A DNA stretch of 32,000 nucleotides, taken from positions 300,001 through 332,000 of the forward strand of contig NZ_CP047931.1 in the NCBI RefSeq assembly GCF_014280175.1, read 5' to 3'. The position numbers and the translations under genes are program-made. The first letter of the stretch is position 1. The number at the start of each line of letters is the position of its first letter. Positions 4,989-31,490 of this stretch are shown one piece after another. Under the pieces are notes generated by a model. It searched no databases, was not told the origin of the DNA, and worked only from the letters and a program-made list of their open reading frames with translations. Source of the stretch: Synechococcus sp. A15-28 (GTDB lineage Bacteria > Cyanobacteriota > Cyanobacteriia > PCC-6307 > Cyanobiaceae).

Positions 4989-5913
4989 GCACCAGCTCTC
5001 GGGCCATGGTGAGTGCGCCCCAGCAGGCATCCGACGCAGAGGGTGCCCAGCGTGCACCGGGGATCTCAGCGACGATTCCCTCCTCAACCGCCCGTTGAAC
5101 ACTGCCCTGGTGCAGCAGCACGCTGCCGAGCCCCGTTACCGCCGGCTGCTGCAGGGCGAGTTCCCGAGCCACCGTGGCGGAGCAGCACACCAGAGCTGCA
5201 GCCGAATGCTGGACGATCATCTGTGCTGCCGGAAGGCCGGCGTCAGCGGCTTCCACCAGCAGCGGCGCCAGGGCGGCCAGGTCTGCGGCAGCGCGAGACG
5301 GGTGCACCACCCAGGCTTTGACATCGGCATGGCTGCGGCAATCCAGTTGCTCCCACATCCGCTGGCGCAGGGGGTGGTCCGGCAGCCTCCCATCCGCCAT
5401 TTGCAGGGTCAGTTGCAAACCCTGATGACCCAGATCAAAGGCTGAACCAGCGCCATCGAGCATCCAGCCCCACCCGCCGCAGCGGTGTTCCCGCCCATGG
5501 CGGTCCCGGCCGATGCAGATCATGCCGGTGCCGCTGATCAGAATGATTCCGTCACCATCGGGAAACGCTCCCCGCAGAGCGGTGCGTTCGTCGCCGGTGG
5601 CCAGGGTTTGGCTCCGGGGGAGAGACAAGGCGTCCGCCAGTAACGCTGTGGCTCTCGGCTGCAGGGGAGTGCCCTGCTCAATGCCGCTGGCACCGATCAC
5701 GGCAGCATCCAGCCTCAGGTCCGCCTGCCCTTCAAGGGCAGTCTTCAGGCTGATGAGCACGGCCTGGCGGAACCGTTCGTCACCGCCGGCGGCATCGAGG
5801 TGAGAAACGCCAGGCCCCAGTCCTTCCCCAAGGGTCTGCCAATGATCCCCCCCCCAGCGGCAGACCCGGCAGCGGGTCTTGGTCTGGCCGGCATCGAATC
5901 CTGCGAGCTGCAT
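4975..5913 (-). CDS. BadF/BadG/BcrA/BcrD-type ATPase (N-acetylglucosamine kinase-like)
   Basis: Homology begins at MQLAGFDAGQTKT (ATG 5913-5911) and includes ISGTG and GGWGWMLDGAGSA motifs. The start overlaps the upstream gene's stop (TGATG). The longer listed ORF 4975..6288 extends into the upstream gene and is rejected. Confidence 0.75.
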   Translation of the reverse strand: MQLAGFDAGQTKTRCRVCRWGGDHWQTLGEGLGPGVSHLDAAGGDERFRQAVLISLKTALEGQADLRLDAAVIGASGIEQGTPLQPRATALLADALSLPRSQTLATGDERTALRGAFPDGDGIILISGTGMICIGRDRHGREHRCGGWGWMLDGAGSAFDLGHQGLQLTLQMADGRLPDHPLRQRMWEQLDCRSHADVKAWVVHPSRAAADLAALAPLLVEAADAGLPAAQMIVQHSAAALVCCSATVARELALQQPAVTGLGSVLLHQGSVQRAVEEGIVAEIPGARWAPSASDACWGALTMARELVLRPR

Positions 5914-13605: not shown

Positions 13606-13660
13606 CGGTGACGCTGAATCATCTGCTCCATTGTGGATCGCTCCGTAAGCTCAGTGCTCA

Positions 13661-13706
13661 GCCCACCTGGCGGAATTGGTAGACGCGCTGGTTTTAGGTA
13701 CCAGTG
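13661..13706 (+). repeat. attL: orphan 5' half of tRNA-Leu(UAG), 46 bp identical to 24053-24098
   Basis: GCCCACCTGGCGGAATTGGTAGACGCGCTGGTTTTAGGTACCAGTG matches the intact tRNA exactly from the acceptor 5' strand through the anticodon stem-loop. Identity ends at 13707/24099. Confidence 0.95.
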
Positions 13707-13752
13707 ACTACCTTAGTAATTGCAACGTGTTTGAGGCTTTATTCGACACGGT

Positions 13753-13806
13753 TTGCCAAAATCTTGCCAAATAAGCTGCTTAAGTCCGGCTTGCCAAAGG
13801 TGAGAT
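13753..13806 (+). repeat. Three direct TTGCCAAA repeats inside attL (candidate arm-type recombinase sites)
   Basis: TTGCCAAA occurs at 13753, 13764 (11-bp spacing) and 13791. The same motif is tandemly repeated at 23903 and 23914 next to attR. Confidence 0.5.
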
Positions 13807-13912
13807 CTGGGAAAACCTAATGTTTTCTCTCTCTCTCGGAAGACCGAGAGGCTTTGAAGGACGAATTTCTGGAGGACTTCTCCATGGGCGTGCCTTTTGG
13901 AGCCCCAGACCT

Positions 13913-13993
13913 TCACTCACCCATCGCTGATTGAAGAATGTTCTTTGCAGCATTCACATCAGCGTTCTCGGTGTGTCCGCATTTCAGGCACTG
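13913..13993 (-). pseudogene. tnpB: tnpB (IS200/IS605-family) 3' fragment: second zinc-ribbon Cys pair to stop
   Basis: The minus frame reads QCLKCGHTENADVNAAKNILQSAMGE-stop, the canonical TnpB C-terminus (CxxCGh..nADvNAAxNI). No upstream TnpB sequence adjoins it. Confidence 0.75.
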
Positions 13994-14001
13994 GAGTTGA
14001 G

Positions 14002-14178
14002 ATGATAGGAAGGTATCATGCACCTGGTTCTTTAGAGGGTTGGATAGTCTTAAAGACTGATGATCCCAAAGCAATATATCAACATGCAGCTGAATGGGGT
14101 GAATTCTTGAATTGGGAGACCACACCTGTATTTACTGATGAGGAAGCTGGTCAAATAGTCGCCAAAATCAACAATTAG
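14002..14178 (+). pseudogene. Truncated small gene, DUF3303-like C-terminal half
   Basis: MIGRYHAPGSLEGWIVLKTDDPKAIYQHAAEWGEFLNWETTPVFTDEEAG resembles only the C-terminal half of DUF3303-type ~90-aa proteins. The N-terminal 35 codons of listed ORF 13897..14178 are antisense to the tnpB fragment. Confidence 0.35.
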
Positions 14179-14231
14179 AGAACGATTGACAGTCGATCTA
14201 CAATAAGGGGAATTAGCTCCTTTTTATTTTT

Positions 14232-15401
14232 ATGGGCACTGATGAAGATGAAAAAGTAATTGTGAATACCAAAGACTTACTTGAACGGGCTCGTGATGGC
14301 CTTAAGATCGCCCTTGTTTATGCGGGTGATAAAAATGAGCCCGACGCTGTAATCGAGCGACAAATCAACAGCCGAGATTGGAAAAGTTATCGAGTAGTCG
14401 CTGAAAATATCGCTGAGACGCTCGAAGCAGAGGGGTTCTCCGATGTGGTTGTATTGCCCGAGGACCGTCACCTCGGAGACGTAATAAGTAGATCCAATAT
14501 CGACTTAGTCTGGCTGAATTCTGGTGGGGTCCAAGGAATTAATCCAATGGCGCATGCTCCTGCGCTGTTAGAAATGTTAGGTGTCCCTTACATTGGCCAT
14601 AACCCACTAGCCGTATCAATTCTCGACAATAAGCACGTGTTTAAGAGTATGTGTATGGCTGCATCCTTGCCAACAGCTCGATCTGTGGTGATCGATCCGA
14701 GCTCTGAAGGCTGGAATTTCATTTACTCAGAACACTTCGAGTCAGTATTTTATGGGTTCCCAGGACCGTTTGTGATAAAGCCGGTAAGTGGCCGGGCTTC
14801 GAAGAACGTGTATTTCGTTGACTCAAAAAGGGAGGTAAAGCATGCGGTGGAGAAGGTTTGGAACGAAACAAACTACCTCTGCCTTGTAGAGGAATATCTC
14901 CCTGGAAGGGAATTCGCGATCTCAATTATGGGGTCGCGTGTGCGTCAAGATGGAGAATTCGTAATCCATGATGGACCCTTCGCGTTCTCCGCCGTCCAGC
15001 GCGTTTTTGAGCCTCATGAAAAGATCTTCGCTTCGATGGATGAGAAGCCGATTACCGACGACCGCATTCGGTTACTTGATCTCTCTCGCGAGTCGGGGTT
15101 AATCCGTGAGATGGAGCATCTGGCTCGCCAAGTCTTTGCATGGTTCACATTAAGTAGCCTGGTCCGACTCGACTTGCGTGAATCAGGTGATGGAGAGCTT
15201 CATCTTTTGGAAGCCAATCCAAAACCTGATTTAAAACGCCCGTCCGAGCACTCAGCCAGTATTACTTGCAGAGGATTAGCTCAGCGGAAAATGTCATACG
15301 CGGATTTGATAGTGTCAATTCTCGCTGAACGCTTGACAGTGTTAGCAAAGACCGGAAAAAAAGATTCCGCAATCCTTAAGAAACTGATGGTCACTTCGTA
15401 A
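14232..15401 (+). CDS. ATP-grasp ligase, D-alanine--D-alanine ligase family-like
   Basis: 389 aa. LLEMLGVPYIGHNPLAVSILDNKHVFK, FVIKPVSGRASKNVYFV, LVEEYLPGREFAISIMG and LRLDLRE...LHLLEANPKPDL follow the Ddl-type ATP-grasp layout. The gene is AT-rich. Confidence 0.75.
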   Translation: MGTDEDEKVIVNTKDLLERARDGLKIALVYAGDKNEPDAVIERQINSRDWKSYRVVAENIAETLEAEGFSDVVVLPEDRHLGDVISRSNIDLVWLNSGGVQGINPMAHAPALLEMLGVPYIGHNPLAVSILDNKHVFKSMCMAASLPTARSVVIDPSSEGWNFIYSEHFESVFYGFPGPFVIKPVSGRASKNVYFVDSKREVKHAVEKVWNETNYLCLVEEYLPGREFAISIMGSRVRQDGEFVIHDGPFAFSAVQRVFEPHEKIFASMDEKPITDDRIRLLDLSRESGLIREMEHLARQVFAWFTLSSLVRLDLRESGDGELHLLEANPKPDLKRPSEHSASITCRGLAQRKMSYADLIVSILAERLTVLAKTGKKDSAILKKLMVTS

Positions 15402-15419
15402 AAATTTTCGAATTGTACA

Positions 15420-15814
15420 GAAAAGTTCTTGGCTTGGCCTGTTTCCTGCTTCTGTGTGACCGCAGACGCTGCACCGTTGGCTGGTGTACTTCGGGTCTAC
15501 CCGCACAATATTCCTGCCGCGTTCTTTGCCCTTCTCTTCAAGCTCCGTATTAGCTGGCCAAGACCTGCATCAGCCATTGAGCGATTGAGCCCACCTTTTG
15601 CTGCGGCTTGATTCAGCAGGAACGTGCCAGATCCATCTTCTGCTGGTTTGGGCTTAGGACGGCGGGTCATGCTCGCTAATTTCAGGTCTTTAATCGCGAG
15701 TGTTCCGTAGGTCCGCAGCAAATAGGTGCTGGTCTTATGCGCAAACAGCTTGCGGGTGCGGCGGATCTTCTCGTGCAAATTCTGGATCTCTTGGGGATTA
15801 TGCGAATAGTGCAT
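15420..15814 (-). pseudogene. tnpB: tnpB central fragment (RuvC-like region to first zinc-ribbon Cys pair), frameshifted
   Basis: LHEKIRRTRKLFAHKTSTYLLRTYGTLAIKDL...LNRSMADAGLGQLIRSLKRRAKNAAG is followed, after a frameshift near 15510, by IVRVDPKYTSQRCSVCGHTEAGNRPSQELF. The roughly 250 N-terminal residues are missing, and the expected catalytic Glu of the EDL motif is Lys. Confidence 0.75.
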
Positions 15815-15895
15815 TTATTAGGCCACTTGCAACTTTTGATGCCTATTTAATTGCCTTCTGAATTAAATTATTGGCTAAGTGTCTAAAGCTCTCGG

Positions 15896-17437
15896 ATGAC
15901 GATCACTTCATATTCCAATACTGACTATCGGTCAGTCGCCGACTACGAGAGCTACGATCTCCTTCAAGATTACTCGGGCTATGACAATGTTATTGAATAT
16001 TATATTCAAGGTGTCGCAGAAAATTACTATCCTGAATACGTCAATAATATCCTTGATTTCTCCTCTGAGGAAAAGAAGTATATTCGCTTTGCGATGGGCG
16101 ATTTCAGTCGATTGACTGGCGCCCAGTTTGTTGAGACAAATGATTTTGATTCAGCAGTTATCAACTTAATTAAGATCGATAGTTATAACGATGGTGATTA
16201 TGTAGGTCTGAACTCACCAGAGGACGGATGGATCGACATCTCTTGGGTGAATTCTGGTGGAGATAAAATGACTGAATATGAAAAGTGGCTGATATGGCAT
16301 GAAGTTGGACATTCAACAGGCATAATGCATCCCAACAATGATGACAGCCACTCGGATCAATACTTTACCAATAAGATCTCAGTGATGTCGGACAATGAGA
16401 CTAATTTCTACCCAACAAGTTTAAGAGATCTTGATATTCAGGCGATGCGTAACGTCTGGGGGCAAACATCCTCTCCCGCCTTTATTCGAAGCGATGATCC
16501 GACTTTGCCAACATTGTCAACCATTGAATCTGAAGGTAATACTGAGCTTCTGAAGGACTCTTCAGGCAATGCCTATGTACGCCAAGATGGCTATGAAAAT
16601 CTGCTCACTCTTAGAGACTATGATGGTGTTCAGTATAAAATTGATGGGACGACAAACCAAGCCGCTGGTGAGCGGGAAATATTAGCAGCTGAACGTATCG
16701 ATGGTATAGATCAAGTTCTGTGGGGCTATTTCGGCGGTGAATCTACGCCAAGCGAATACCGTGTTTACGAAAATGATTTGTGGGGAGAGCCTGATACTGA
16801 CTACTATTGGTATGAAACAGGTGAATCCGATATTTACGAAATTGGTACACCAGGTTTTGATCAAATAGCCACGTCATTTGGTATTGAGGCTCCTTCTGCG
16901 CCAACACCAACACCAACTCCAACTCCAACACCTGAAACTAGTTCGGATATAGATGTTCCTGTCAATAAAAAATGGTCTAAATACTTATGGAAAAAGTCTG
17001 GAAAGGATGGAATTATTGATTACTATGCTGACAAGAAAGGAAAGTTAGATAAAAAACAAAATACAAAAATTGCCAAGAAAACTCTTTCATTTGTTGATGA
17101 CATGCTTGATGAAACCGAGTCAATCTTGGGACTAGAATTCAATAAAGTAAAGAAAAGTAAGCAGGCTGACATTGTCTTCCAAGCCAAGTCAAAAAGCAAA
17201 GACGCGACAACTTATAAGACTAAATATGGCATGGAAGTCTCATTTTCTAAGACTCAAAAGAAGCCTACGCAGTACGACATGCAAGACATTAATTATCTCA
17301 CCGGATACGCTCTTGGCCTCAAGGATTTGAAGGGAAATTCTTACGATGCCGCCGACTCAGTCATGGCAGCTAACTATAGTGATGAATATCTAGGATGGTC
17401 CAATAATGATATAAAAGCTCTTCAGTCCATATGGTGA
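15896..17437 (+). CDS. Metzincin-type zinc metalloprotease fused via a PT-repeat linker to a Lys-rich, catalytically degenerate second metzincin-like domain
   Basis: HEVGHSTGIMH (16298-16330) matches HExxHxxGxxH, with a downstream SVMS Met-turn candidate and DIQAMRNVWG. A (PT)5 linker lies at 16901-16933. The C-terminal domain repeats the layout, but YLTGYALGLKD replaces the zinc site. No N-terminal signal peptide is apparent. Confidence 0.7.
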   Translation: MTITSYSNTDYRSVADYESYDLLQDYSGYDNVIEYYIQGVAENYYPEYVNNILDFSSEEKKYIRFAMGDFSRLTGAQFVETNDFDSAVINLIKIDSYNDGDYVGLNSPEDGWIDISWVNSGGDKMTEYEKWLIWHEVGHSTGIMHPNNDDSHSDQYFTNKISVMSDNETNFYPTSLRDLDIQAMRNVWGQTSSPAFIRSDDPTLPTLSTIESEGNTELLKDSSGNAYVRQDGYENLLTLRDYDGVQYKIDGTTNQAAGEREILAAERIDGIDQVLWGYFGGESTPSEYRVYENDLWGEPDTDYYWYETGESDIYEIGTPGFDQIATSFGIEAPSAPTPTPTPTPTPETSSDIDVPVNKKWSKYLWKKSGKDGIIDYYADKKGKLDKKQNTKIAKKTLSFVDDMLDETESILGLEFNKVKKSKQADIVFQAKSKSKDATTYKTKYGMEVSFSKTQKKPTQYDMQDINYLTGYALGLKDLKGNSYDAADSVMAANYSDEYLGWSNNDIKALQSIW

Positions 17438-17672
17438 TTGCGCTGTATTTGCTGCATATTTATAGACGTTGAACTCATTGATGCTTGCCCAAGGTGAGAG
17501 CCTAAACATGCTTTAAGGCAAGTAATATCTATTCTGAAATCTCCCAGTACGACAGCAGAAAGTCATATCTTGCGAGTATTGATATTTCCAGTTTTGGGTA
17601 AATGTGTTGGCGCCTAAGGGCGAATGCCTGGACGAGCTCCCCCCGGAGTAAGGGGGGGGGGCTAAAGGATCT

Positions 17673-18272
17673 TCAGCACGCCGCCACCTCCTGTTCAGAA
17701 ATGATCCGACGGATCGTTGAGAGCGCCAGTCCCGTCTGCTCTCGAATGGAGCGATAGGAGCACCCCTCGTCCCTTAAGCGCAGAACCAGGCGTTCTTTTG
17801 CCTGATTGGTTTTGGGGCGACCGCCAATAGATCCGCCAGTCGCCTTTCGGTGCTGGATGCTCTCCATCACGCGATCCCTGGTCATCTCGCGTTCCACCTC
17901 ATTCAGTCCAGTCAGCAGACCAATGAGGACGGGTGCCATCTTTCCCATCGCCTTGGTGTTTACCAATCCATCCAGAGTTCGGACGTGAATGCCTTCCTCC
18001 TGCAAGTCGTGAAGACGGTTGATCACCTCACGCTGTGTCCTTCCAAGGCGTGAAAGAGCGGTAATGACGAGTTCGTCTCCTTCCACGACTGCATTGAGTG
18101 CTGCCTGCAGTTGGTGGCGGTCTTTCTCTGCTGTGCGGGTGCTAACGATCTCCTGGAAGACCACAGCGCACCCTGCATCCTTCAACGCCTTGACCTGAAC
18201 CTCCAGACCGGCCGCTTGCTTGGTGTCGCCACCGCCGCTGGTTCTTGCATAACCAATGCTTCGGGAGGTCAC
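17673..18272 (-). CDS. Small serine recombinase (resolvase/invertase family) with C-terminal HTH
   Basis: 199 aa with IGYARTS (catalytic Ser), GDELVITALSRLGR, EREMTRDRV and a C-terminal HTH (GCSYRSIREQTGLALSTIRRI). It is visibly GC-richer than neighbouring island DNA. Confidence 0.85.
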   Translation of the reverse strand: MTSRSIGYARTSGGGDTKQAAGLEVQVKALKDAGCAVVFQEIVSTRTAEKDRHQLQAALNAVVEGDELVITALSRLGRTQREVINRLHDLQEEGIHVRTLDGLVNTKAMGKMAPVLIGLLTGLNEVEREMTRDRVMESIQHRKATGGSIGGRPKTNQAKERLVLRLRDEGCSYRSIREQTGLALSTIRRIISEQEVAAC

Positions 18273-18393
18273 TGTTCCAAAAAGGGTTGTTCCAGAAACA
18301 ATAGCAACAAAACACTGTTAATGGAACACTCATATCCCAGTGGCAGCAGTTTTTTGTGAGTGTTCTTGTTTCCGATCGGTTGTTGGAACACTC
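18271..18393. repeat. Cluster of GGAACA(CTC)/TGTTCC repeats upstream of the serine recombinase (candidate res/crossover sites)
   Basis: TGGAACACTC occurs at 18322-18331 and 18384-18393, with the inverted GAGTGTTC at 18358-18365. TGTTCCA lies at 18273 and TGTTCCAG at 18288. Confidence 0.35.
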
Positions 18394-18640
18394 CTGAACT
18401 AGCGCCAAAGCTGATGAAGCATTCGACCACCGACAGATGGCGGAGGCATTCCGCAAACGCATCAAGGTCTTTCCTGGCGCCTACATCAACCTCAGGTGCA
18501 CCACTCCGCGCCACCTCGAGCCCGATGTGTCCTGAGACGAGCAGATCAGTAACGGCACGAACAGTAACTGTGTCAATTAGCAGATTGTCACCTAGCTTTT
18601 AAAATGCTGTTCACTTCTCAAGAGCGGGCAGACGCGGGTG

Positions 18641-19018
18641 CTAATTGAGCCACTGCGACGGGATCTCTGGCCCAATTGAGTATGGGAAGCCGTGCCTCTT
18701 CGCCCACATCGAGAAGGTGGTGGAGCTGTTCTTGGCGATGGGTCGGTCGTTATAAAACAAGAAGCGCAGATCTAAGTCCTCGTTCTGCTCAGATGCCTTT
18801 TGATATTTGGCTCTATCTTCTGCACTCATCGAGCCACCTTTGCACTCAACATAGAAGTCTTGACCTTCAACTCTGAAGTCTGGCGTGTAGTGATGGTGGC
18901 TGACATAGTGAGTTCTTTTTGGCTCGTAATCGAAACAATGCCCATTCTCGACCAGGTTCTCTGCAACCAGATATTCGAACTTGCTTCTAAAGCCGTTCCA
19001 AGCTTGTAAAGATGACAC
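18641..19018 (-). CDS. Phage T7 endonuclease I (gp3)-like Holliday-junction resolvase
   Basis: 125 aa that aligns along its length with T7 gp3: FRSKFEYLVAENL..., HYTPDF, FYVECKG, DLDLRFLF, and a C-terminal IPSQWL versus IPAEWI. The catalytic E, D, E and K positions are all present. Confidence 0.8.
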   Translation of the reverse strand: MSSLQAWNGFRSKFEYLVAENLVENGHCFDYEPKRTHYVSHHHYTPDFRVEGQDFYVECKGGSMSAEDRAKYQKASEQNEDLDLRFLFYNDRPIAKNSSTTFSMWAKRHGFPYSIGPEIPSQWLN

Positions 19019-19210
19019 TGTAACTGCGCTTGACTAAGTTAAATATAGCGCAAGAATGCAGTCACAGGAACGGATAAAAGGCGAGCAGGAAGTCTATCTA
19101 GACCAGTAATAAGGCAGAAAGAGCTTGTTTGTATGTATTTTTAATTGCACGTAGGCATTTGACTGCATGTAGCTTAGAGCAGAGTTAAAGCAACTCATAC
19201 GAAGGAGAGA

Positions 19211-19528
19211 CCTCAAATATCTCAATCTCAACCTCAACCTTTTTTCGTGTATGGATATTTTCATGCCTGTGGCACTGATTTAACGCTCCAATCAGGTTCT
19301 TTTCCCCCTTTCCTCTCTTTAACTTCTTTTACTTAAAAAGGTTGATCAGGTTAAGACAGATGGGCTGAAGTGCTGTCATGCCAATGGATCAAGAGCATCT
19401 CAACCTAGTGTCTCAACCTCGCCTCAACCTCAACTAAAAAGGCATCAAACGGGTCCAACGGTGGAAGGGAAGCATCTCAACCTTCAGCAATCACGCAGGT
19501 TGAGATGGAGGTTAAGCAGGAGGTTAAG
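19211..19528. repeat. Iteron-like array of CTCAACCT / AGGTTRAG 8-mers (candidate replication origin)
   Basis: Forward CTCAACCT occurs at 19227, 19233, 19399, 19412, 19423 and 19476. Inverted AGGTT(G/A)A(G/T) occurs at 19339, 19348, 19497, 19509 and 19521. An 11-bp inverted repeat pairs 19473-19483 with 19497-19507. The array is non-coding and lies just 3' of the primase-helicase gene. Confidence 0.6.
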
Positions 19529-19536
19529 AGCGGCAT

Positions 19537-21006
19537 TCATTCTGATTGGTGCCAGTAATAACCACGAACGCCATTGATTGTCTTCTGCTGGTCATCTTTG
19601 CGGAAACCCTTTGCTTGCAACAAGGCGGCCATACGCATTTCTTCCCTTCGTCCTAGCTTCTCTTCCCAGCCGTCAAACCCGACGCCCCTCAATGCATCCA
19701 GGGTAGTGAAATATTCATGAGGTTCCTTATCAATAACACCATATTCATTCATACCTAACAACCATTTATCGAGCCATTTATCGAGCTTCGCACTCCACAT
19801 ATCTTCAGGCAAGTAGCCTTTGTTTTGTTGGTTAGATAGCTCTTGATTCTCTAACGAAAGCATGGGCTTTTCACCAGCACGATAGGCGAGAATTGCAGCC
19901 TTCCAGATGCGATCTCTGTCTCGAGCTACAAGTTCAACAGGGATAAATTCTTGTTTCTGGGCCTTCTGCGGAAGCGAGAGTACTTGGAAGCGTCTGTTCC
20001 CGCTTGGATCTCTTAAAAAGTCATCTCCATTGACGCTCGAAACCATAATGCTGCGGCGATTATCACGCTCAATGTTTCGTCCATAGGGTTTCTTGATCAT
20101 GTCCGATGCAGTAGTGATCAGGGCTTTTAATTCGCCCACACCTTTCTTGCTGGTGATGTTTTCAAGCTCTGCAAGTTCAAAGATCCAACAGCTGTGCATA
20201 TTCATGATCATCTCTTTGTTGTCCTTTGGCGTTGAATCGCAGAACCACAACGGGCTGCACAATATTTTCCAGAATGTAGATTTTCGGATGCCCTGATCAC
20301 CTTTGAGAACCACAACAGTGTCAAACTGGCATCCAGGCTCAAACCGCCTTGCAACTGCACCCAGTAATGCCACCTTCATCATCTGATCACTCAGATTCGA
20401 TTCAGTATTTAGGTAATTAGTCGCAATTTTATTTATATCGACAGGCTCTACATCATCTGCTTTCTCCAGATATTGCAAATAATCGAGTACTGGGTCATAG
20501 CGATGCTTCTGAGCAACTCTGAGCAGACCATCACACCATGGCTTTTGTTCGAAGTTCCAGCCTTGCTGCTGCATATCTGCATAAGAGACCAGAGTTTCAT
20601 CTTCTGGAAGTGCAACGCCACCGAACTCATAAACACGCGCCAATTCATTCAGCTTGAGATGGCTGCCTACGTACTTCTCCAGCAGGGTTATGACCGCACC
20701 AGCGTTCAACCGTGGAGCAGGTCTCTGTTCACCGTTTTCATCCAGCTCCTGGGGGAACAAACCGACCGTCTTGATTAACCCAGACAGCCCACCACTTTCT
20801 GGTGCTGCTATTGCCCTGACTGGTTCGCTGTAGCCGTTTTTCTTGGCCTCCTTGATCAGAGTTCCAATTCCGACGCCTTCACCCGGCGCCTTCTCGCTGA
20901 AGCTGTCCCACTTCTGCACAAACTCCGATTCATCGAAGTTGCTCATTGGCCTGCTCCACTCAACCCAGTCATTGAGCAGACCTTCGTCAACGCTGTGCAG
21001 CGCCAT
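19537..21006 (-). CDS. PriCT-2 / VirE-family P-loop NTPase (primase-associated helicase-like) C-terminal part of replication protein
   Basis: 489 aa. WVEWSRPMSNFDESEFVQKWDSF...IGTLIKEAKKNGY is PriCT-2-like, followed by a VirE-like core with the Walker A motif LKGDQGIRKSTFW. PriCT-2 similarity continues upstream of the Met to the TAA at 21055-21057. Confidence 0.8.
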   Translation of the reverse strand: MALHSVDEGLLNDWVEWSRPMSNFDESEFVQKWDSFSEKAPGEGVGIGTLIKEAKKNGYSEPVRAIAAPESGGLSGLIKTVGLFPQELDENGEQRPAPRLNAGAVITLLEKYVGSHLKLNELARVYEFGGVALPEDETLVSYADMQQQGWNFEQKPWCDGLLRVAQKHRYDPVLDYLQYLEKADDVEPVDINKIATNYLNTESNLSDQMMKVALLGAVARRFEPGCQFDTVVVLKGDQGIRKSTFWKILCSPLWFCDSTPKDNKEMIMNMHSCWIFELAELENITSKKGVGELKALITTASDMIKKPYGRNIERDNRRSIMVSSVNGDDFLRDPSGNRRFQVLSLPQKAQKQEFIPVELVARDRDRIWKAAILAYRAGEKPMLSLENQELSNQQNKGYLPEDMWSAKLDKWLDKWLLGMNEYGVIDKEPHEYFTTLDALRGVGFDGWEEKLGRREEMRMAALLQAKGFRKDDQQKTINGVRGYYWHQSE

Positions 21007-21054
21007 CCCAACCTTGAGCCAGTTGTCGTAGTCCTCAAAGTCAGCTGGAGAGAG

Positions 21055-21792
21055 TTACTTCAGAGCAGCAAGCGCCTTTTGTCTGTTGTGTTCTTGTTCT
21101 GCGTCTGAAAGATCTTTCTGAGGCTTAGGGCAGTTCTTAGGCAGATAAGAGTCAGTCTCCAAGAGAGCTTCCAACAACCACTCATGAGCTTCTGCAACGT
21201 CCACCTCTTGTGGTGAGCAGCCCTTTACCCAGCGGTAGCCACCTGTTTCTGGATGCTTTCCAGCAATGACGCTTTGCAGATTTGATCCTTGAGCGGGAAA
21301 GCGGGCCTCAAAAACTATGGATCCGCCTTGCCTCCACTGCCTGTGTCTGAGCTTGTCCCGCCACGCAGATGGAACTGAGAAAGCAATCTGACGCCGGTCT
21401 GGTTTTCCGCTGGTCCAAGCGAGGGAGGAAGGTAAATCAGAGGAGGGTCGCCCGAACAGACGCAGGAATTCCTCTTCTGAACCTGGACCGTCAAAGTCAA
21501 TCGCACCAACCCCTAAAGATCTTTCACCGAGGATCAATCCAACGGCTTTTGGTTGCATCTGTTGAATCTGTTCTGCCGTATATCCCTCGAATCCTTTCCA
21601 CTTCAGTTCACTGTTGGTTTTGTAGTCCCATGGAACTTTGTTGTCATCGACTGGGAGATAGCGCCATTCTTTTGGACAGGCACTTAGATCTTCATACTGG
21701 TTGCTATGACAGGTTTTGTCTGCCTGTTCTGGATATAATGAGGCAGGGGAATCCGCCTGCTGATTAGCTTCAAACATTTTTAATTTAAGCAA
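21055..21792 (-). CDS. Bifunctional primase-polymerase (Prim-Pol) domain protein
   Basis: 245 aa with AVGLILGERSLGVGAIDFDG and FEARFPAQGSNLQSVIAGKHPETGGYRW, which fit the Prim-Pol N-terminal domain pattern. It is in the same frame as the downstream ORF, separated by one stop codon. Confidence 0.75.
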   Translation of the reverse strand: MLKLKMFEANQQADSPASLYPEQADKTCHSNQYEDLSACPKEWRYLPVDDNKVPWDYKTNSELKWKGFEGYTAEQIQQMQPKAVGLILGERSLGVGAIDFDGPGSEEEFLRLFGRPSSDLPSSLAWTSGKPDRRQIAFSVPSAWRDKLRHRQWRQGGSIVFEARFPAQGSNLQSVIAGKHPETGGYRWVKGCSPQEVDVAEAHEWLLEALLETDSYLPKNCPKPQKDLSDAEQEHNRQKALAALK

Positions 21793-21828
21793 GATTACTG
21801 GTGCAGCTGTTGACGCAGCTGTGCTTTT

Positions 21829-22011
21829 TTATTTGTGGAGTTGAAGGGGCAAGTGTTCAATTGCGATCTGACGAACCAGTCCGCTCAACGTTGTTTCGCG
21901 CGATTGAGCTCTGCGGTGTAGCTCATCACGAAATTGTCTTGAACAGCGGATTTTGATGTCAGATTCCTGCAAACAGGAGATGTATCCAGGTGCCATGAAT
22001 AATCGTTTCAT
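21829..22011 (-). CDS. Ribbon-helix-helix (CopG/Arc-like) DNA-binding protein
   Basis: 60 aa. IKIRCSRQFRDELHRRAQSRETTLSGLVRQIAIEHL fits a beta-strand, helix, helix RHH layout. Confidence 0.55.
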   Translation of the reverse strand: MKRLFMAPGYISCLQESDIKIRCSRQFRDELHRRAQSRETTLSGLVRQIAIEHLPLQLHK

Positions 22012-22061
22012 TCATATCTTCAACGTACCGCACAAATTCCCTATCTGTTTGAGTTTCTTGC

Positions 22062-22388
22062 TCATAATGAACCTCCACAATTCAGCTTGTACGACTCAAA
22101 ATCTTTCACGGCCTTTGCCGCGTGATAGTGCCTACGCACTCCCGATTTTGTTGGTTTCTCCCTGATGGATTCTGCTTTAAAGACTCCCATCTTCGCTAGT
22201 CGGCAGATGTGATCAGGGTGTTTCCCAACCAGCTGCCCAAACTCTTTTGGAGATAGCCATTTAGTGGGAGAAGGGTATGTAATCGCCCGCCTAATCTCCT
22301 CAAGCTTTTTGGACTGTTCTTTCATATGGCTTTCTATCGAAGCCAGTGTCAAGTGAAATCCTTGACTGGATGTAGAGGGATTGTGCAT
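22062..22388 (-). CDS. xis: Excisionase-type helix-turn-helix protein (Xis/AlpA-like)
   Basis: 108 aa. KWLSPKEFGQLVGKHPDHICRLAKMGVF...RRHYH resembles excisionase-family HTH_17 domains. It sits between the integrase and the replication genes. Confidence 0.55.
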   Translation of the reverse strand: MHNPSTSSQGFHLTLASIESHMKEQSKKLEEIRRAITYPSPTKWLSPKEFGQLVGKHPDHICRLAKMGVFKAESIREKPTKSGVRRHYHAAKAVKDFESYKLNCGGSL

Positions 22389-22657
22389 CCGTCGATATTT
22401 GTACTGAACCCTTCTTATCGGATGAAATCGTCTTCTGTTTGAGTTTTTCTAGGTTTTTGTGGCTGTGATGTTCTGCTCAGCTTTAGCGGTATAGAGCAAA
22501 AGCTAAAACTATGCCAGTTTTAACCAGTTATAATTGTCAAATTCCGTATGCGGTCTAGCTTCTTTGGTCTGAGGCACTGCATAGTGTGCAGGTGATCATG
22601 AAGATATTGAAGAAACTCTGGAGAAAATATTCGTACCATGTTGTCAGGAATCTCAGA

Positions 22658-23854
22658 TCAGTCGAGGATTATTAGCTTTGCGAGCACATCCTCTTCTTGC
22701 ATCGCTGTGATCTCTTGCAAGTAAGTATTTTCGTGCGTCTGCATTGAATGTCCCATAGCTCTGGCGGCTAGATAAGTGTCGAAACGTTTTAGTGCCGCTT
22801 GTATTCCCCAGTAATGCCTGACTCCAAGCTTGTTGTACTCAGGCCAAATCTTTCTAGCTGCTTTTGCGGCTTCACTGTCCCTCAGAAATGCTCTCCACCT
22901 GTTCTCGAAGCATTTCACTCTTGAACTGCTGCGTTGTGTGTTTTTCAGAGGCTTTAGAGCTTCAGTGTATTCATCAGGAGTTGTCCAGCGAAAGTCTCCA
23001 GGTATGTACACATTCGTGAGTTCATAGCGTTCAACCCACTTCATCGAGAGTGCAATGGCGGTTCTTGTGTTTTGAGGTCCACCTTCTCTCTTATCGATCG
23101 TTAAGCAGTCCGCAAGCTTCCCTCCCAGCTTTGGAACTAGGGATGCGGTTTCATTTACTCGGCAGCCGTATATCGCATGTGCTGCAGTGCACCAGCCCCA
23201 TTCAGTTCCTTGAAGTGCGTCTAGGAATGCTTGAAGCTGTTCCAAGCTTTCTGGAACGGCACGTTTTGGTGCTTTGTATTTTGCTTTGATTTCTAGAATT
23301 GCGGTTGTGTTTAAAGAGTTGGCCTTCGCGATTTGTAGAGCTGCGGATTTCTCTTTTTTTCTCCTGTTACTTCCTGCGGGCGCTCTCTCAACAAGTGCGA
23401 CCAAAAGTTCGCTGGTCAAGCTGGCGTTTTCGTAACCCTTCAACAGTCCTCGAACGGTGTAGCCCTTCCGGGTGAATCCATCGTTTGTATTTGGCTTCAG
23501 ATCGTGGTCGGCTCTCTCGCGCCTCTCCCACTCCGCAATGGCTTCTGAGCCGGTTAAGGGTGTGTTCTGTGCTTTGAGGGCTGTCTGACGTGCTTTAAGG
23601 GATGCTTTTGGGTCGCCTCCTGCCTTGATGACGATCCAGGCCTCTCGCGCCAGTTCCTTGGCTTCTTCGATGCCCGCGGAAGTGGCTTTGATCCCTAGCG
23701 CTATTCGTTGAGACTTTCTCTCTTGCCCAATAGAAGCCCAGGTTCCTCTTAGATAAAGAGTTCCGGTTTGTTCTGGTCGCTGGATCTTCAGTGGTATGCC
23801 GCCCATCGCCAAAAACTCATTGGCTTGCTTGATGGCTGAGTCAATGTTCGTCAT
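22658..23854 (-). CDS. int: Tyrosine recombinase / integrase
   Basis: 398 aa. The C-terminal catalytic region has YGCRVNE (Arg I), GVRHYWG (Arg-His) and MGHSMQTHENTYL (His and the Tyr nucleophile). It is adjacent to attR and the tRNA. Confidence 0.85.
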   Translation of the reverse strand: MTNIDSAIKQANEFLAMGGIPLKIQRPEQTGTLYLRGTWASIGQERKSQRIALGIKATSAGIEEAKELAREAWIVIKAGGDPKASLKARQTALKAQNTPLTGSEAIAEWERRERADHDLKPNTNDGFTRKGYTVRGLLKGYENASLTSELLVALVERAPAGSNRRKKEKSAALQIAKANSLNTTAILEIKAKYKAPKRAVPESLEQLQAFLDALQGTEWGWCTAAHAIYGCRVNETASLVPKLGGKLADCLTIDKREGGPQNTRTAIALSMKWVERYELTNVYIPGDFRWTTPDEYTEALKPLKNTQRSSSRVKCFENRWRAFLRDSEAAKAARKIWPEYNKLGVRHYWGIQAALKRFDTYLAARAMGHSMQTHENTYLQEITAMQEEDVLAKLIILD

Positions 23855-23887
23855 CTAACTGCTCGCAGACCGTTGAAATCCTTAAGA

Positions 23888-23923
23888 ACTTGCCTCGTGG
23901 GACTTGCCAAAAACTTGCCAAAT
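23888..23923 (+). repeat. Tandem ACTTGCCAAA repeats between int start and attR (candidate arm-type sites / int promoter-operator)
   Basis: ACTTGCC(tcg) lies at 23888, with ACTTGCCAAA at 23902 and 23913 (11-bp spacing). The core 8-mer and orientation match the repeats at 13753-13799. Confidence 0.5.
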
Positions 23924-24052
23924 CCGGGGGTGACATAACCCGATTTATCGGATCACTAGAGGACAGTCAACTCCACCGCCTCGCTTCGCTGAAACCCCAA
24001 ACAGGCTGGCCTTTCTAAGGTTTAAGTCGTATTCGACTATCATTCAGTTCAA

Positions 24053-24134
24053 GCCCACCTGGCGGAATTGGTAGACGCGCTGGTTTTAGGTACCAGTGGC
24101 CTTGGTCGTGGGGGTTCAAGTCCCCCGGTGGGCA
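24053..24134 (+). tRNA. tRNA-Leu (anticodon UAG), class II with long variable arm
   Basis: Cloverleaf read by hand. The acceptor pairs GCCCACC with GGTGGGC. The anticodon stem pairs CTGGT with ACCAG around loop TTTAGGT. The variable arm is long and the T arm is GGGGG-TTCAAGT-CCCCC. No CCA is encoded. Confidence 0.93.
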
Positions 24135-31417: not shown

Positions 31418-31490
31418 TGGAGAATAGGGGACTCGAACCCCTGACCTCTGCGGTGCGATCGCAGCGCTCTACCAGCTGAGCTAATTCCCC
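31418..31490 (-). tRNA. tRNA-Ala (anticodon CGC)
   Basis: The reverse complement is GGGGAATTAGCTCAGCTGGTAGAGCGCTGCGATCGCACCGCAGAGGTCAGGGGTTCGAGTCCCCTATTCTCCA. It has the G3:U70 Ala identity pair and anticodon loop ATCGCAC. Confidence 0.9.

Follow-up and report, generated by a model that had tools for sequence, protein, structure and literature searches.

Which kind of mobile element is represented by the compact gene block at 18641-23854 of the 32,000-nucleotide window analysed here (Synechococcus sp. A15-28, contig NZ_CP047931.1, positions 300,001 to 332,000)? The original prediction, made by reading this window alone, described seven features on one strand, in the order integrase (int), Xis-like helix-turn-helix (HTH) protein, ribbon-helix-helix (RHH) regulator, PrimPol, PriCT-2/VirE NTPase, iteron array and junction resolvase. 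They were regarded as a complete kit for excision, regulation, replication and resolution in a tycheposon-like island of 10.4 kb, and it was left open whether the island belongs to a described family. All seven features were recovered at their places, in that order, on the minus strand. The evidence from sequence comparison says that the island does belong to a described family. With a probability of about 0.8, the island that spans 13660-24098 is a tycheposon of the cargo type, that is, a site-specific element with its own replication module and without particle or conjugation genes.

The definition and the hallmark list of tycheposons are given in the preprint of Hackl et al. (10.1101/2020.12.28.424599). 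The island has a tyrosine recombinase (YR) of the tycheposon lineage, hallmark genes, an int gene situated at one end and facing inward, and a full and a partial tRNA at its flanks. All the hallmark classes are represented, namely YR, xis, reg, pri, hel_VirE, end and SSR (small serine recombinase). The combination of a tRNA-targeting tyrosine recombinase, a replication module and cargo, on which the likeness to tycheposons had been proposed, was borne out by the boundaries, the empty sites, the clustering of the recombinase and the similar kit of a Prochlorococcus element (L017), as described below.

Boundaries and target site of the island

The island resides in the closed 2.34-Mb genome of A15-28, a clade III isolate, and measures 10,392 bp from repeat to repeat. 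The GC content drops sharply to about 47% inside it, from 62-65% in the flanks, and a direct repeat identical at 47 of 47 positions (13660-13706 and 24052-24098) bounds it, in agreement with the 10.4-kb island proposed before. The right repeat corresponds to the first 46 nt (positions 1-46) of an intact tRNA-Leu(TAG) at 24053-24134, which was identified by ARAGORN and Rfam; this tRNA was the sole Rfam match. As the right copy is the start of the tRNA, the island is located on the tRNA's 5' side, and the left copy represents the displaced 5' half. The features of the attachment (att) sites and of the core between int and the origin are as follows.

13660-13706, plus strand: attL, the displaced 5' half of tRNA-Leu(TAG) beside the native promoter (perfect 47-nt repeat of 24052-24098)
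13752-13798, plus strand: P' arm with three repeats of CTTGCCAAA type, candidates for arm-type sites of the integrase (repeat scan)
19220-19529, no strand: predicted replication origin with 11 copies of T[CT][AT]ACCT (core TCTCAACCT), with 5 and 6 copies in the two orientations, arranged as two clusters on either side of a spacer of 37-41% GC (repeat counts, conserved layout)
19537-21792, minus strand: replicase, one PrimPol-PriCT_2-VapE/VirE gene cut by an in-frame TAA at 21057-21055 (Pfam, comparison with the copies L001 and L002)
21829-22011, minus strand: 60-aa protein, probable RHH regulator (sub-threshold NikA-like match)
22062-22388, minus strand: 108-aa winged-helix protein, probable excisionase, i.e. 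recombination directionality factor (AlphaFold2 and Foldseek)
22658-23854, minus strand: integrase of the tyrosine recombinase family with an arm-binding-like domain at the N-terminus; its gene reads into the element (family profile, fold, catalytic residues)
23890-23954, plus strand: P arm with ACTTGCC(AAAA) repeats at 23890-23922, then a conserved palindromic block, CATAACCCGATTTATCGGATC, at 23934-23954 (repeat scan, relatives)
24038-24043, plus strand: element-borne -10-like hexamer TATCAT, ending 10 nt before the tRNA +1 (conserved spacing in variants)
24052-24134, plus strand: attR core (24052-24098) within the reconstituted intact tRNA-Leu(TAG) at 24053-24134 (ARAGORN, Rfam, repeat)

Removal of 13660-24051 in silico resulted in a gapless 608/608 alignment, at 99.3-99.7% identity, to eight independent empty-site contigs. 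These came from an NCBI metagenome-assembled genome, TARA and other ocean metagenomes, and in all of them a Ycf66-like gene, the tRNA-Leu and crtR are adjacent. The empty site was found in the majority of contigs from the same host population. The same element, 99.76% identical, was present in a 10,460-bp metagenome scaffold from the Bermuda Atlantic Time-series Study (BATS) running from att to att, and copies 99.8% identical with an intact replicase were present in several metagenomes. This comparison indicates that the island is a variable insertion, and the empty sites point to its recent gain or loss.

The recombinase and its attachment sites

The integrase is a protein of 398 aa (QNI41389.1). 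Its gene is 198 bp from the att core, and xis, rhh, the replicase gene and the origin follow. As a single query it had no match in Pfam, PHROGs, NCBIfam or PDB sequences, or by tblastn in 50,697 phage genomes. An exhaustive profile search, the only type of search that opened the family, revealed 185 relatives among 1.84 billion representative proteins. PF00589 was matched by 27 of the 61 relatives that were aligned, and the profile of these 61 matched an XerC-like protein (4a8e) with an E-value of 1.9e-13, along with XerA, IntI4, XerH and XerD. The catalytic positions R232, R346-H347, H369 and Y378 are conserved. The top Foldseek matches of the AlphaFold2 (AF2) model, which has a predicted local distance difference test score (pLDDT) of 89.8, were all tyrosine recombinases, and the alignment with full-length lambda Int extended over 383 columns and covered the arm-binding domain. 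On this profile and fold evidence the protein is a very divergent tyrosine recombinase, and the int call of the original prediction was sound. A scan with the alignment of the close integrase clade gave no match in the genome collection and two short contigs only in the metagenomes.

The relatives place this recombinase in a specific setting. All 11 genome-borne relatives, searched in one-genome-per-species GTDB contigs, were picocyanobacterial (eight Prochlorococcus, two Synechococcus/Synechococcaceae and one Cyanobium). Seven of them have the end of a tRNA-Ser(tga) or tRNA-Arg(cct) gene at a distance of about 140-370 bp from the integrase gene, and in two more (L017, L018) tRNA-Ser(tga) is situated 2-7 kb past the far end of the integrase. 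The window integrase matched the loci of the genome-borne relatives in tblastn with E-values from 5e-24 to 4e-13, with only 25-30% identity to the tRNA-Ser-associated recombinases. A hidden Markov model (HMM) of the close clade alone scored the genome-borne relatives at 62-105 bits, P4 Int at 5 and P-SSP7 Int at -1.9, and lambda Int went unreported. In a neighbour-joining tree with three outgroups, the integrase and its picocyanobacterial relatives formed a clade with 94% bootstrap. By these sequence comparisons, the recombinase groups with the tRNA-adjacent recombinases of picocyanobacteria, the setting of tycheposons, and not with the integrases of lambda, P4 or P-SSP7. More closely related but still diverged elements, with integrases 72-89% identical, adjoin tRNA-Leu(TAG) in the same divergent orientation. 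Their hosts differ, with another variable arm in the tRNA and flanks that are only 74-81% identical. A junction in L025 and L027, where identity to attL extends to 50 nt, was considered as attP and rejected; these hosts carry a tRNA-Leu variant with a different variable arm.

Both sides of the att core carry short repeats. Exact CTTGCCAAA occurs four times in the 32-kb window, all in the two arms, where about 0.24 copies were expected by chance. The arm repeats co-vary among the element variants: in L028, with an integrase 72% identical, four AAGTGCCTAAAA repeats occupy the same position beside the same CATAACCCGATTTATCGGATC block. This block, which adjoins the arm repeats, is kept in the spacers between int and tRNA of variants (L027, L028) down to 72% integrase identity. 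It is a candidate operator or accessory-protein site.

The 99.8% identical copy L001 has a T at tRNA position 6 in attR and a C in attL, and the T is also found in an 89%-related element (L027). The reconstituted 5' half of the tRNA is therefore derived from the element, and this fits a strand exchange 3' of position 6. CTGGT and ACCAG, the two halves of the anticodon stem, are inverted repeats that enclose the 7-nt loop, and the identity block stops 2 nt past the stem. This arrangement suggests that the crossover takes place in the anticodon loop of tRNA-Leu(TAG). The predicted attP junction is composed of ...TATCATTCAGTTCA, the 47-nt core and ACTACCTTAGTAAT... Upstream of the tRNA, a TAnnnT hexamer is situated at -15 to -10 from +1 in all four element variants, as TATCAT, TACTAT or TACCAT (window, L027, L028, L032). 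The native empty site shows TAAGCT (13646-13651) at the same spacing. From this conserved spacing we infer that the hexamer acts as an element-borne replacement of the -10 promoter element of the tRNA.

Replication module, accessory genes and cargo

The PrimPol open reading frame (ORF; 21055-21792) matches PF09250 with an E-value of 2.8e-11, and the ORF with PriCT_2 and VapE/VirE (19537-21006) reaches 1.5e-60. Both predicted domain sets are thus present as two ORFs, but their reading as separate genes does not stand. In L001 and L002, both 99.8% identical copies, they form a single replicase of 746 aa. Two adjacent substitutions at 21055-21056 give TAA in the window versus TGT (Cys) in L001. 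In the intact protein PriCT_2 covers residues 237-311 (65 bits), and the stop, at about codon 241, falls within it. The apparent VirE start, an ATG at 21006, is the methionine of a conserved VGMAL motif, and in close full-length relatives the replicase is likewise a fusion, 680-790 aa long. Judged against these homologues, PrimPol and VirE are one interrupted gene in A15-28. Since the stop is inside the PriCT-2 domain, the A15-28 replicase is broken or at best split. The replicase of a relative, L035, is independently frameshifted, so that both genome-borne copies examined (A15-28 and L035) are broken; the metagenomic copies are intact. The replicase is distantly like that of Synechococcus siphovirus S-LBS1 (34.5% identity), and its PrimPol-PriCT2 half is 33% identical to the counterpart in the Prochlorococcus element L017.

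The iteron array was clearly recovered. With up to one mismatch, TCTCAACCT occurs 19 times in the window, a number reached in none of 100 shuffles, and ten of these 19 copies, including all five exact ones, are within 19220-19529. The layout is kept in L032, the replicase of which is 83% identical, with 5 + 6 copies by orientation and spacing differences of at most 2 nt. The array is accordingly laid out as a predicted replication origin.

Comparison with L032 also distinguished the backbone from the variable part. The identity to the window is 73% for int, 72% for xis, 54% for rhh, 77% for PrimPol and 83% for VirE. Homology at the DNA level extends to window position 19225, shortly after the last iteron; the downstream genes differ, and neither endonuclease I nor the serine recombinase is found downstream of the L032 origin. 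Endonuclease I is therefore not a backbone gene. In these comparisons the conserved unit is int-xis-rhh-replicase-ori, and endonuclease I, serine recombinase and cargo vary between relatives. In L035 (GCA_003209165.1, QCSL01000008.1, 8480-19702) the rhh-replicase-ori module, at 85% nucleotide identity, is part of a different island, which lacks a tRNA and carries Resolvase and SNase/Excalibur genes together with a recombinase of 555 aa beside glnA. As the replicase and origin are shared with a different element, modules are exchanged between elements. The Prochlorococcus element L017, from a single-cell genome, encodes a YR, a Xis of the HTH_17/Cox type and a PrimPol-PriCT2-helicase of 750 aa, and its boundaries are 35-nt repeats that match the 5' end of tRNA-Ser.

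The two small proteins of the backbone were assigned with less certainty. The 108-aa protein had no profile match, and a PDB sequence-profile search gave nothing significant. Its AF2 model (pLDDT 82) has a winged helix preceded by a long helix and followed by another helix, and the best Foldseek matches of the winged helix were BldC, the excisionase RdfS, P2 Cox and the DNA-binding domain of lambda gpNu1. It shows 71-72% amino acid identity in relatives with about 70-81% identical DNA. The Xis-like HTH call thus gained a winged-helix fold, and at the level of fold the protein is probably an excisionase. The 60-aa protein likewise gave nothing significant in the PDB sequence-profile search, and its ORF is kept at 43-95% amino acid identity in L025, L026 and L027. 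The identity of this protein as an RHH regulator is plausible rather than proven. The non-coding gap of 270 bp between int and the xis-like gene (22389-22657) has short tandem and inverted repeats, for example CCAGTTATAA twice at 22514-22533. The gap may be a regulatory switch region.

The absence of capsid, terminase, relaxase and type IV secretion system (T4SS) genes noted in the original prediction was confirmed by profile searches, which revealed no hidden ones. No capsid, terminase, portal, relaxase, T4SS or defence family was detected among the element ORFs in Pfam, PHROGs, NCBIfam and PADLOC. Packaging genes (terS, capsid, capsid-remodelling) were not found in Pfam or PHROGs even at E-values up to 1, nor were a relaxase, coupling protein or T4SS in Pfam, PHROGs and NCBIfam. 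The sole packaging-like trace was a faint TerS-HTH PHROG match of the 108-aa protein (E = 0.2).

The remaining genes of the island are accessory genes and cargo.

18641-19018, minus strand: T7-type endonuclease I, a Holliday-junction-resolving nuclease (PF05367, 6.3e-19; phrog_945, 7.5e-32)
18269-18514, minus strand: 81-aa ORF without family match, overlapping the serine recombinase start by 4 nt (gene call in the metagenomic copy L002)
17673-18272, minus strand: small serine recombinase of resolvase/invertase type (PF00239, 1.9e-27; phrog_125 DNA invertase, 1.8e-39)
15896-17437, plus strand: cargo, 513-aa protein with an HEVGHSTGIMH motif (HExxHxxGxxH, metzincin-type) and a PT-repeat linker (motif in translation)
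14232-15401, plus strand: cargo, ATP-grasp ligase like D-Ala-D-Ala ligase (PF07478, 9.2e-12)
13897-14178, plus strand: cargo, DUF3303 protein, with the N-terminal 31 positions of the profile unmatched (PF11746, 1.6e-18)
13913-15814, minus strand: IS605-family tnpB relic in three pieces, 15814-15497 (OrfB_IS605 74-118), 15506-15342 (TNB 21-40) and 14125-13913 (TNB 39-60)

The junction resolvase call was right as to the enzyme, a Phage_endo_I protein, and not as to its membership in a conserved core. Among phages, T7-like cyanophages and pelagiphages have the nearest relatives of this enzyme, at 42-46% identity. The serine recombinase and the 81-aa ORF extend the same minus-strand block, so the core list as first drawn up omitted the small serine recombinase.

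The cargo makes up the remaining 4.5 kb or so (13707-17437) on the plus strand, where the DUF3303, ATP-grasp ligase and HExxHxxGxxH protein genes are threaded through the tnpB relic. About 1.4 kb holding the DUF3303 and ATP-grasp genes splits this relic. Its two TNB pieces are contiguous in the Pfam profile, and it is devoid of any N-terminal part of TnpB. The NCBIfam Ddl subfamilies match the ATP-grasp protein far under their cut-offs, and a public look-up returned no exact record of it. The 513-aa protein showed weak Matrixin and Astacin matches in Pfam, no PHROG or PADLOC match and nothing significant in the PDB sequence-profile search. Its (PT)n linker comes from a CCAACA repeat at 16901-16932, its C-terminal half is lysine-rich, and it has no obvious signal peptide. 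In L032 a 246-aa ORF is 34% identical to it over 68 residues around the metzincin motif. A role in nutrient uptake is not evident for any of the three cargo products. Elsewhere in the window, a second tRNA gene, tRNA-Ala(cgc), is located at 31418-31490 on the minus strand in a stretch of slightly lower GC (57-58%).

Proposed cycle, rival explanations and known systems

The features suggest the following cycle for a tycheposon of this kind. The three-domain tyrosine recombinase would bind the repeated arm sites ACTTGCCAAAA on both sides of the 47-bp core through its N-terminal arm-binding domain. Strand exchange would occur in the anticodon loop, with the stem halves CTGGT and ACCAG serving as inverted core sites around the 7 nt. 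Being on the 5' side of the tRNA, the element would supply a replacement 5' half together with a replacement -10 element and thereby leave the host with a functional tRNA-Leu. Excision would take place when the winged-helix Xis-like protein reverses the direction of the reaction, and repression of the rightward operon is probably the task of the small RHH protein. The excised circle would be replicated by the fused PrimPol-PriCT2-VirE primase-helicase from the iteron origin, which directly follows the replicase gene. Branched or multimeric products would be resolved by two accessory enzymes, endonuclease I and the small serine recombinase. Transfer from cell to cell would need a vehicle not encoded by the element, such as vesicles or the capsids of a helper phage.

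A number of observations weigh against the assignment as a tycheposon. The hallmark classes were assigned through Pfam, PHROGs and Foldseek and not with the HMM profiles of the authors, and the recombinase tree, with its three outgroups only, is our own and not the reference tree of Hackl et al. The islands of Prochlorococcus use seven targets, Pro, Ser, Ala, Thr, Arg and Met tRNAs and tmRNA, and the target here is tRNA-Leu(TAG), which is outside this set; the set is not part of the authors' definition (10.1101/2020.12.28.424599). The attP junction pattern had no match in IMG/VR and JGI metagenome contigs, where no excised form was seen, and no relatives of the integrase or replicase were found in IMG/VR. 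The Foldseek matches of the Xis-like protein have probabilities of 0.84-0.99 yet E-values of 0.04-0.5, and the sole match of the 60-aa protein, NikA-like (RHH), is below the cut-off (E = 0.009). A scan for sigma-70 promoters and terminators performed no better than on the shuffled background and gave the -10-like hexamer no statistical support. Finally, the replicase is interrupted. Because it is cut by a stop codon, the A15-28 copy is likely unable to amplify; it can probably integrate and excise but not amplify, and the idea of a complete kit fails for this copy.

The interrupted replicase also underlies the rival explanation that survives best, in which the island of A15-28 is a stranded, decaying remnant, bounded by att sites and no longer mobile or replicative. 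The fragmented tnpB relic in the cargo region and the independently frameshifted replicase of L035, a second genome-borne relative, point in the same direction. However, the int, xis and rhh ORFs are intact and the att repeats are identical throughout. Copies with an intact replicase circulate in several metagenomes, and the prevalence of the empty site in the same population indicates recent gain or loss. Moreover, loss of replication would not abolish excision and integration. The remnant explanation is thus possible, though on the doubtful side.

Rather unlikely, in our judgement, is a phage satellite of the type of P4, phage-inducible chromosomal islands (PICIs) or virion-encapsidated integrative mobile elements (VEIMEs), in which a helper cyanophage induces excision and replication and its capsids package the element. 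This explanation overlaps with the tycheposon reading, a minority of tycheposons being PICI-like. The core layout mirrors that of P4 in int, arm repeats, short ori repeats, a primase-helicase of about 750 aa and a small excisionase/regulator. Endonuclease I is nearest to enzymes of T7-like cyanophages, which use tRNA-Leu as attB (PMC8776855), and the attP of P-SSP7 is also a tRNA-Leu 5' half. In addition, the winged HTH of the 108-aa protein resembles lambda gpNu1, the protein has the faint TerS match, and tycheposons have been reported to be enriched in viral particles. Against this, no terS, capsid or interference gene appeared at any threshold used, the 108-aa protein is devoid of a TerS oligomerisation domain, endonuclease I is no part of the backbone, and nothing related was found in IMG/VR. 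The island also carries 4.5 kb of cargo, whereas PICI-like tycheposons have never been seen with cargo (Hackl et al., 10.1101/2020.12.28.424599).

A more far-reaching and quite improbable version holds that the backbone is a helper-dependent satellite platform of T7-like cyanophages, with which it shares the habit of using the tRNA-Leu 5' half and from which this copy acquired endonuclease I, and that the tRNA-Leu(TAG) supply of the host depends on element DNA. The supply would hang on element-borne DNA since both the promoter and the 5' half of the tRNA are those brought by the element. If true, the DNA driving the tRNA would be shared with the divergent integrase gene, which could couple the control of the element to host translation or stabilise the element.

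Two further explanations are very improbable. An integrated plasmid or integrative mobilisable element conjugating through a helper T4SS is suggested by the weak match of the 60-aa protein to the relaxosome accessory protein NikA, but this likeness is simply that of an RHH fold, the island has no gene for a relaxase, a coupling protein or a T4SS, and most Prochlorococcus cells are reported to be without conjugation (Hackl et al., 10.1101/2020.12.28.424599). A defective prophage stripped of its structural genes would explain the phage-type endonuclease I and the distant likeness of the replicase to that of S-LBS1, but not the precise boundaries and compact size, the absence of structural-gene remnants in Pfam and PHROGs, an integrase without relatives among the phage integrases of 50,697 genomes, or the recurrence of the same compact backbone in relatives.

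As a tycheposon, the island would be of use in several ways. Tycheposons were defined mainly in Prochlorococcus, which is uncultured or hard to manipulate; here a precisely bounded member is found in a cultured Synechococcus with a closed genome. The target site, the arm repeats, the origin and the replacement of the promoter are definable to the single base. The nonsense allele of the A15-28 replicase versus the intact 99.8% identical wild copies forms a natural contrast for separating excision from amplification. The element genes that were looked up, the integrase and the 513-aa protein, are both annotated as 'hypothetical protein' in the public record, and ordinary annotation pipelines therefore miss such elements.

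In a literature search, no description was found of tRNA-Leu elements of the tycheposon kind or of this island. Among phages, the T7-like cyanophages P-SSP7 and S-TIP37 (PMC8776855) share with it an attP that is the 5' half of a tRNA-Leu and a related endonuclease I. They differ in using another Leu isoacceptor and an unrelated, shorter integrase, and in being full lytic phages with structural genes. The attP of P-SSP7 (L030, about 5860-5900) is a tRNA-Leu 5' half with a TAA-type anticodon loop and a 21-nt D-arm identity with tRNA-Leu(TAG). It has the same sublocation in the tRNA as the island att, with a different isoacceptor and an unrelated integrase. Sharing of the island attB by cyanopodoviruses was considered and rejected, as these phages had no match of at least 28 nt to tRNA-Leu(TAG). 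Phage matches of that length were limited to two large Synechococcus phages (189 and 244 kb, three records), in which the matching sequences are tRNA-Leu-like.

Satellite P4 integrates in a tRNA-Leu gene, using the 3' end of leuX. It resembles the island (P4 record NC_001609) in an int with arm-type repeats, short iterated ori repeats, a small excisionase/regulator, one large primase-helicase (alpha, 777 aa) and a size of about 11 kb. Its Int scores 5 bits against the integrase clade, and its genes for capsid size and helper control, sid, psu, delta and epsilon, are absent from the island. PICIs and the marine VEIME satellites (PMC9618062) are like the island in their integrase, primase/helicase and excisionase/AlpA-type regulator, their size of 5-15 kb and their occurrence in oligotrophic marine bacteria. 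Unlike the island, they are defined by virion packaging and usually have terS or capsid-related genes.

Nearer in host are the tycheposon-like insertions reported from Synechococcus by Grébert et al. (2022, PMC8995045), which occupy tRNA-Phe(GAA) and are situated upstream of the phycobilisome rod region. As far as described in the passages on them, they share with the island the YR, TnpR-like small serine recombinases and a remnant tRNA at the other end. These passages do not mention a replication module or origin. The insertions are in another tRNA, and their recombinase is distal to the full tRNA, whereas that of the island is adjacent.

The closest resemblance is to the tycheposons of Prochlorococcus. 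They too have an inward-facing YR of a picocyanobacteria-specific lineage beside a full tRNA, a partial tRNA at the other end, a small replication module by the integrase and several kb of cargo. Capsid and conjugation genes are absent from them, and they are patchy in the host population. The island differs from them in its Synechococcus clade III host, its tRNA-Leu(TAG), an integrase of 25-30% identity and a cargo without evident role in nutrient uptake. What is new is the host clade and the tRNA-Leu(TAG) target; the kind of element, a tycheposon, is known.

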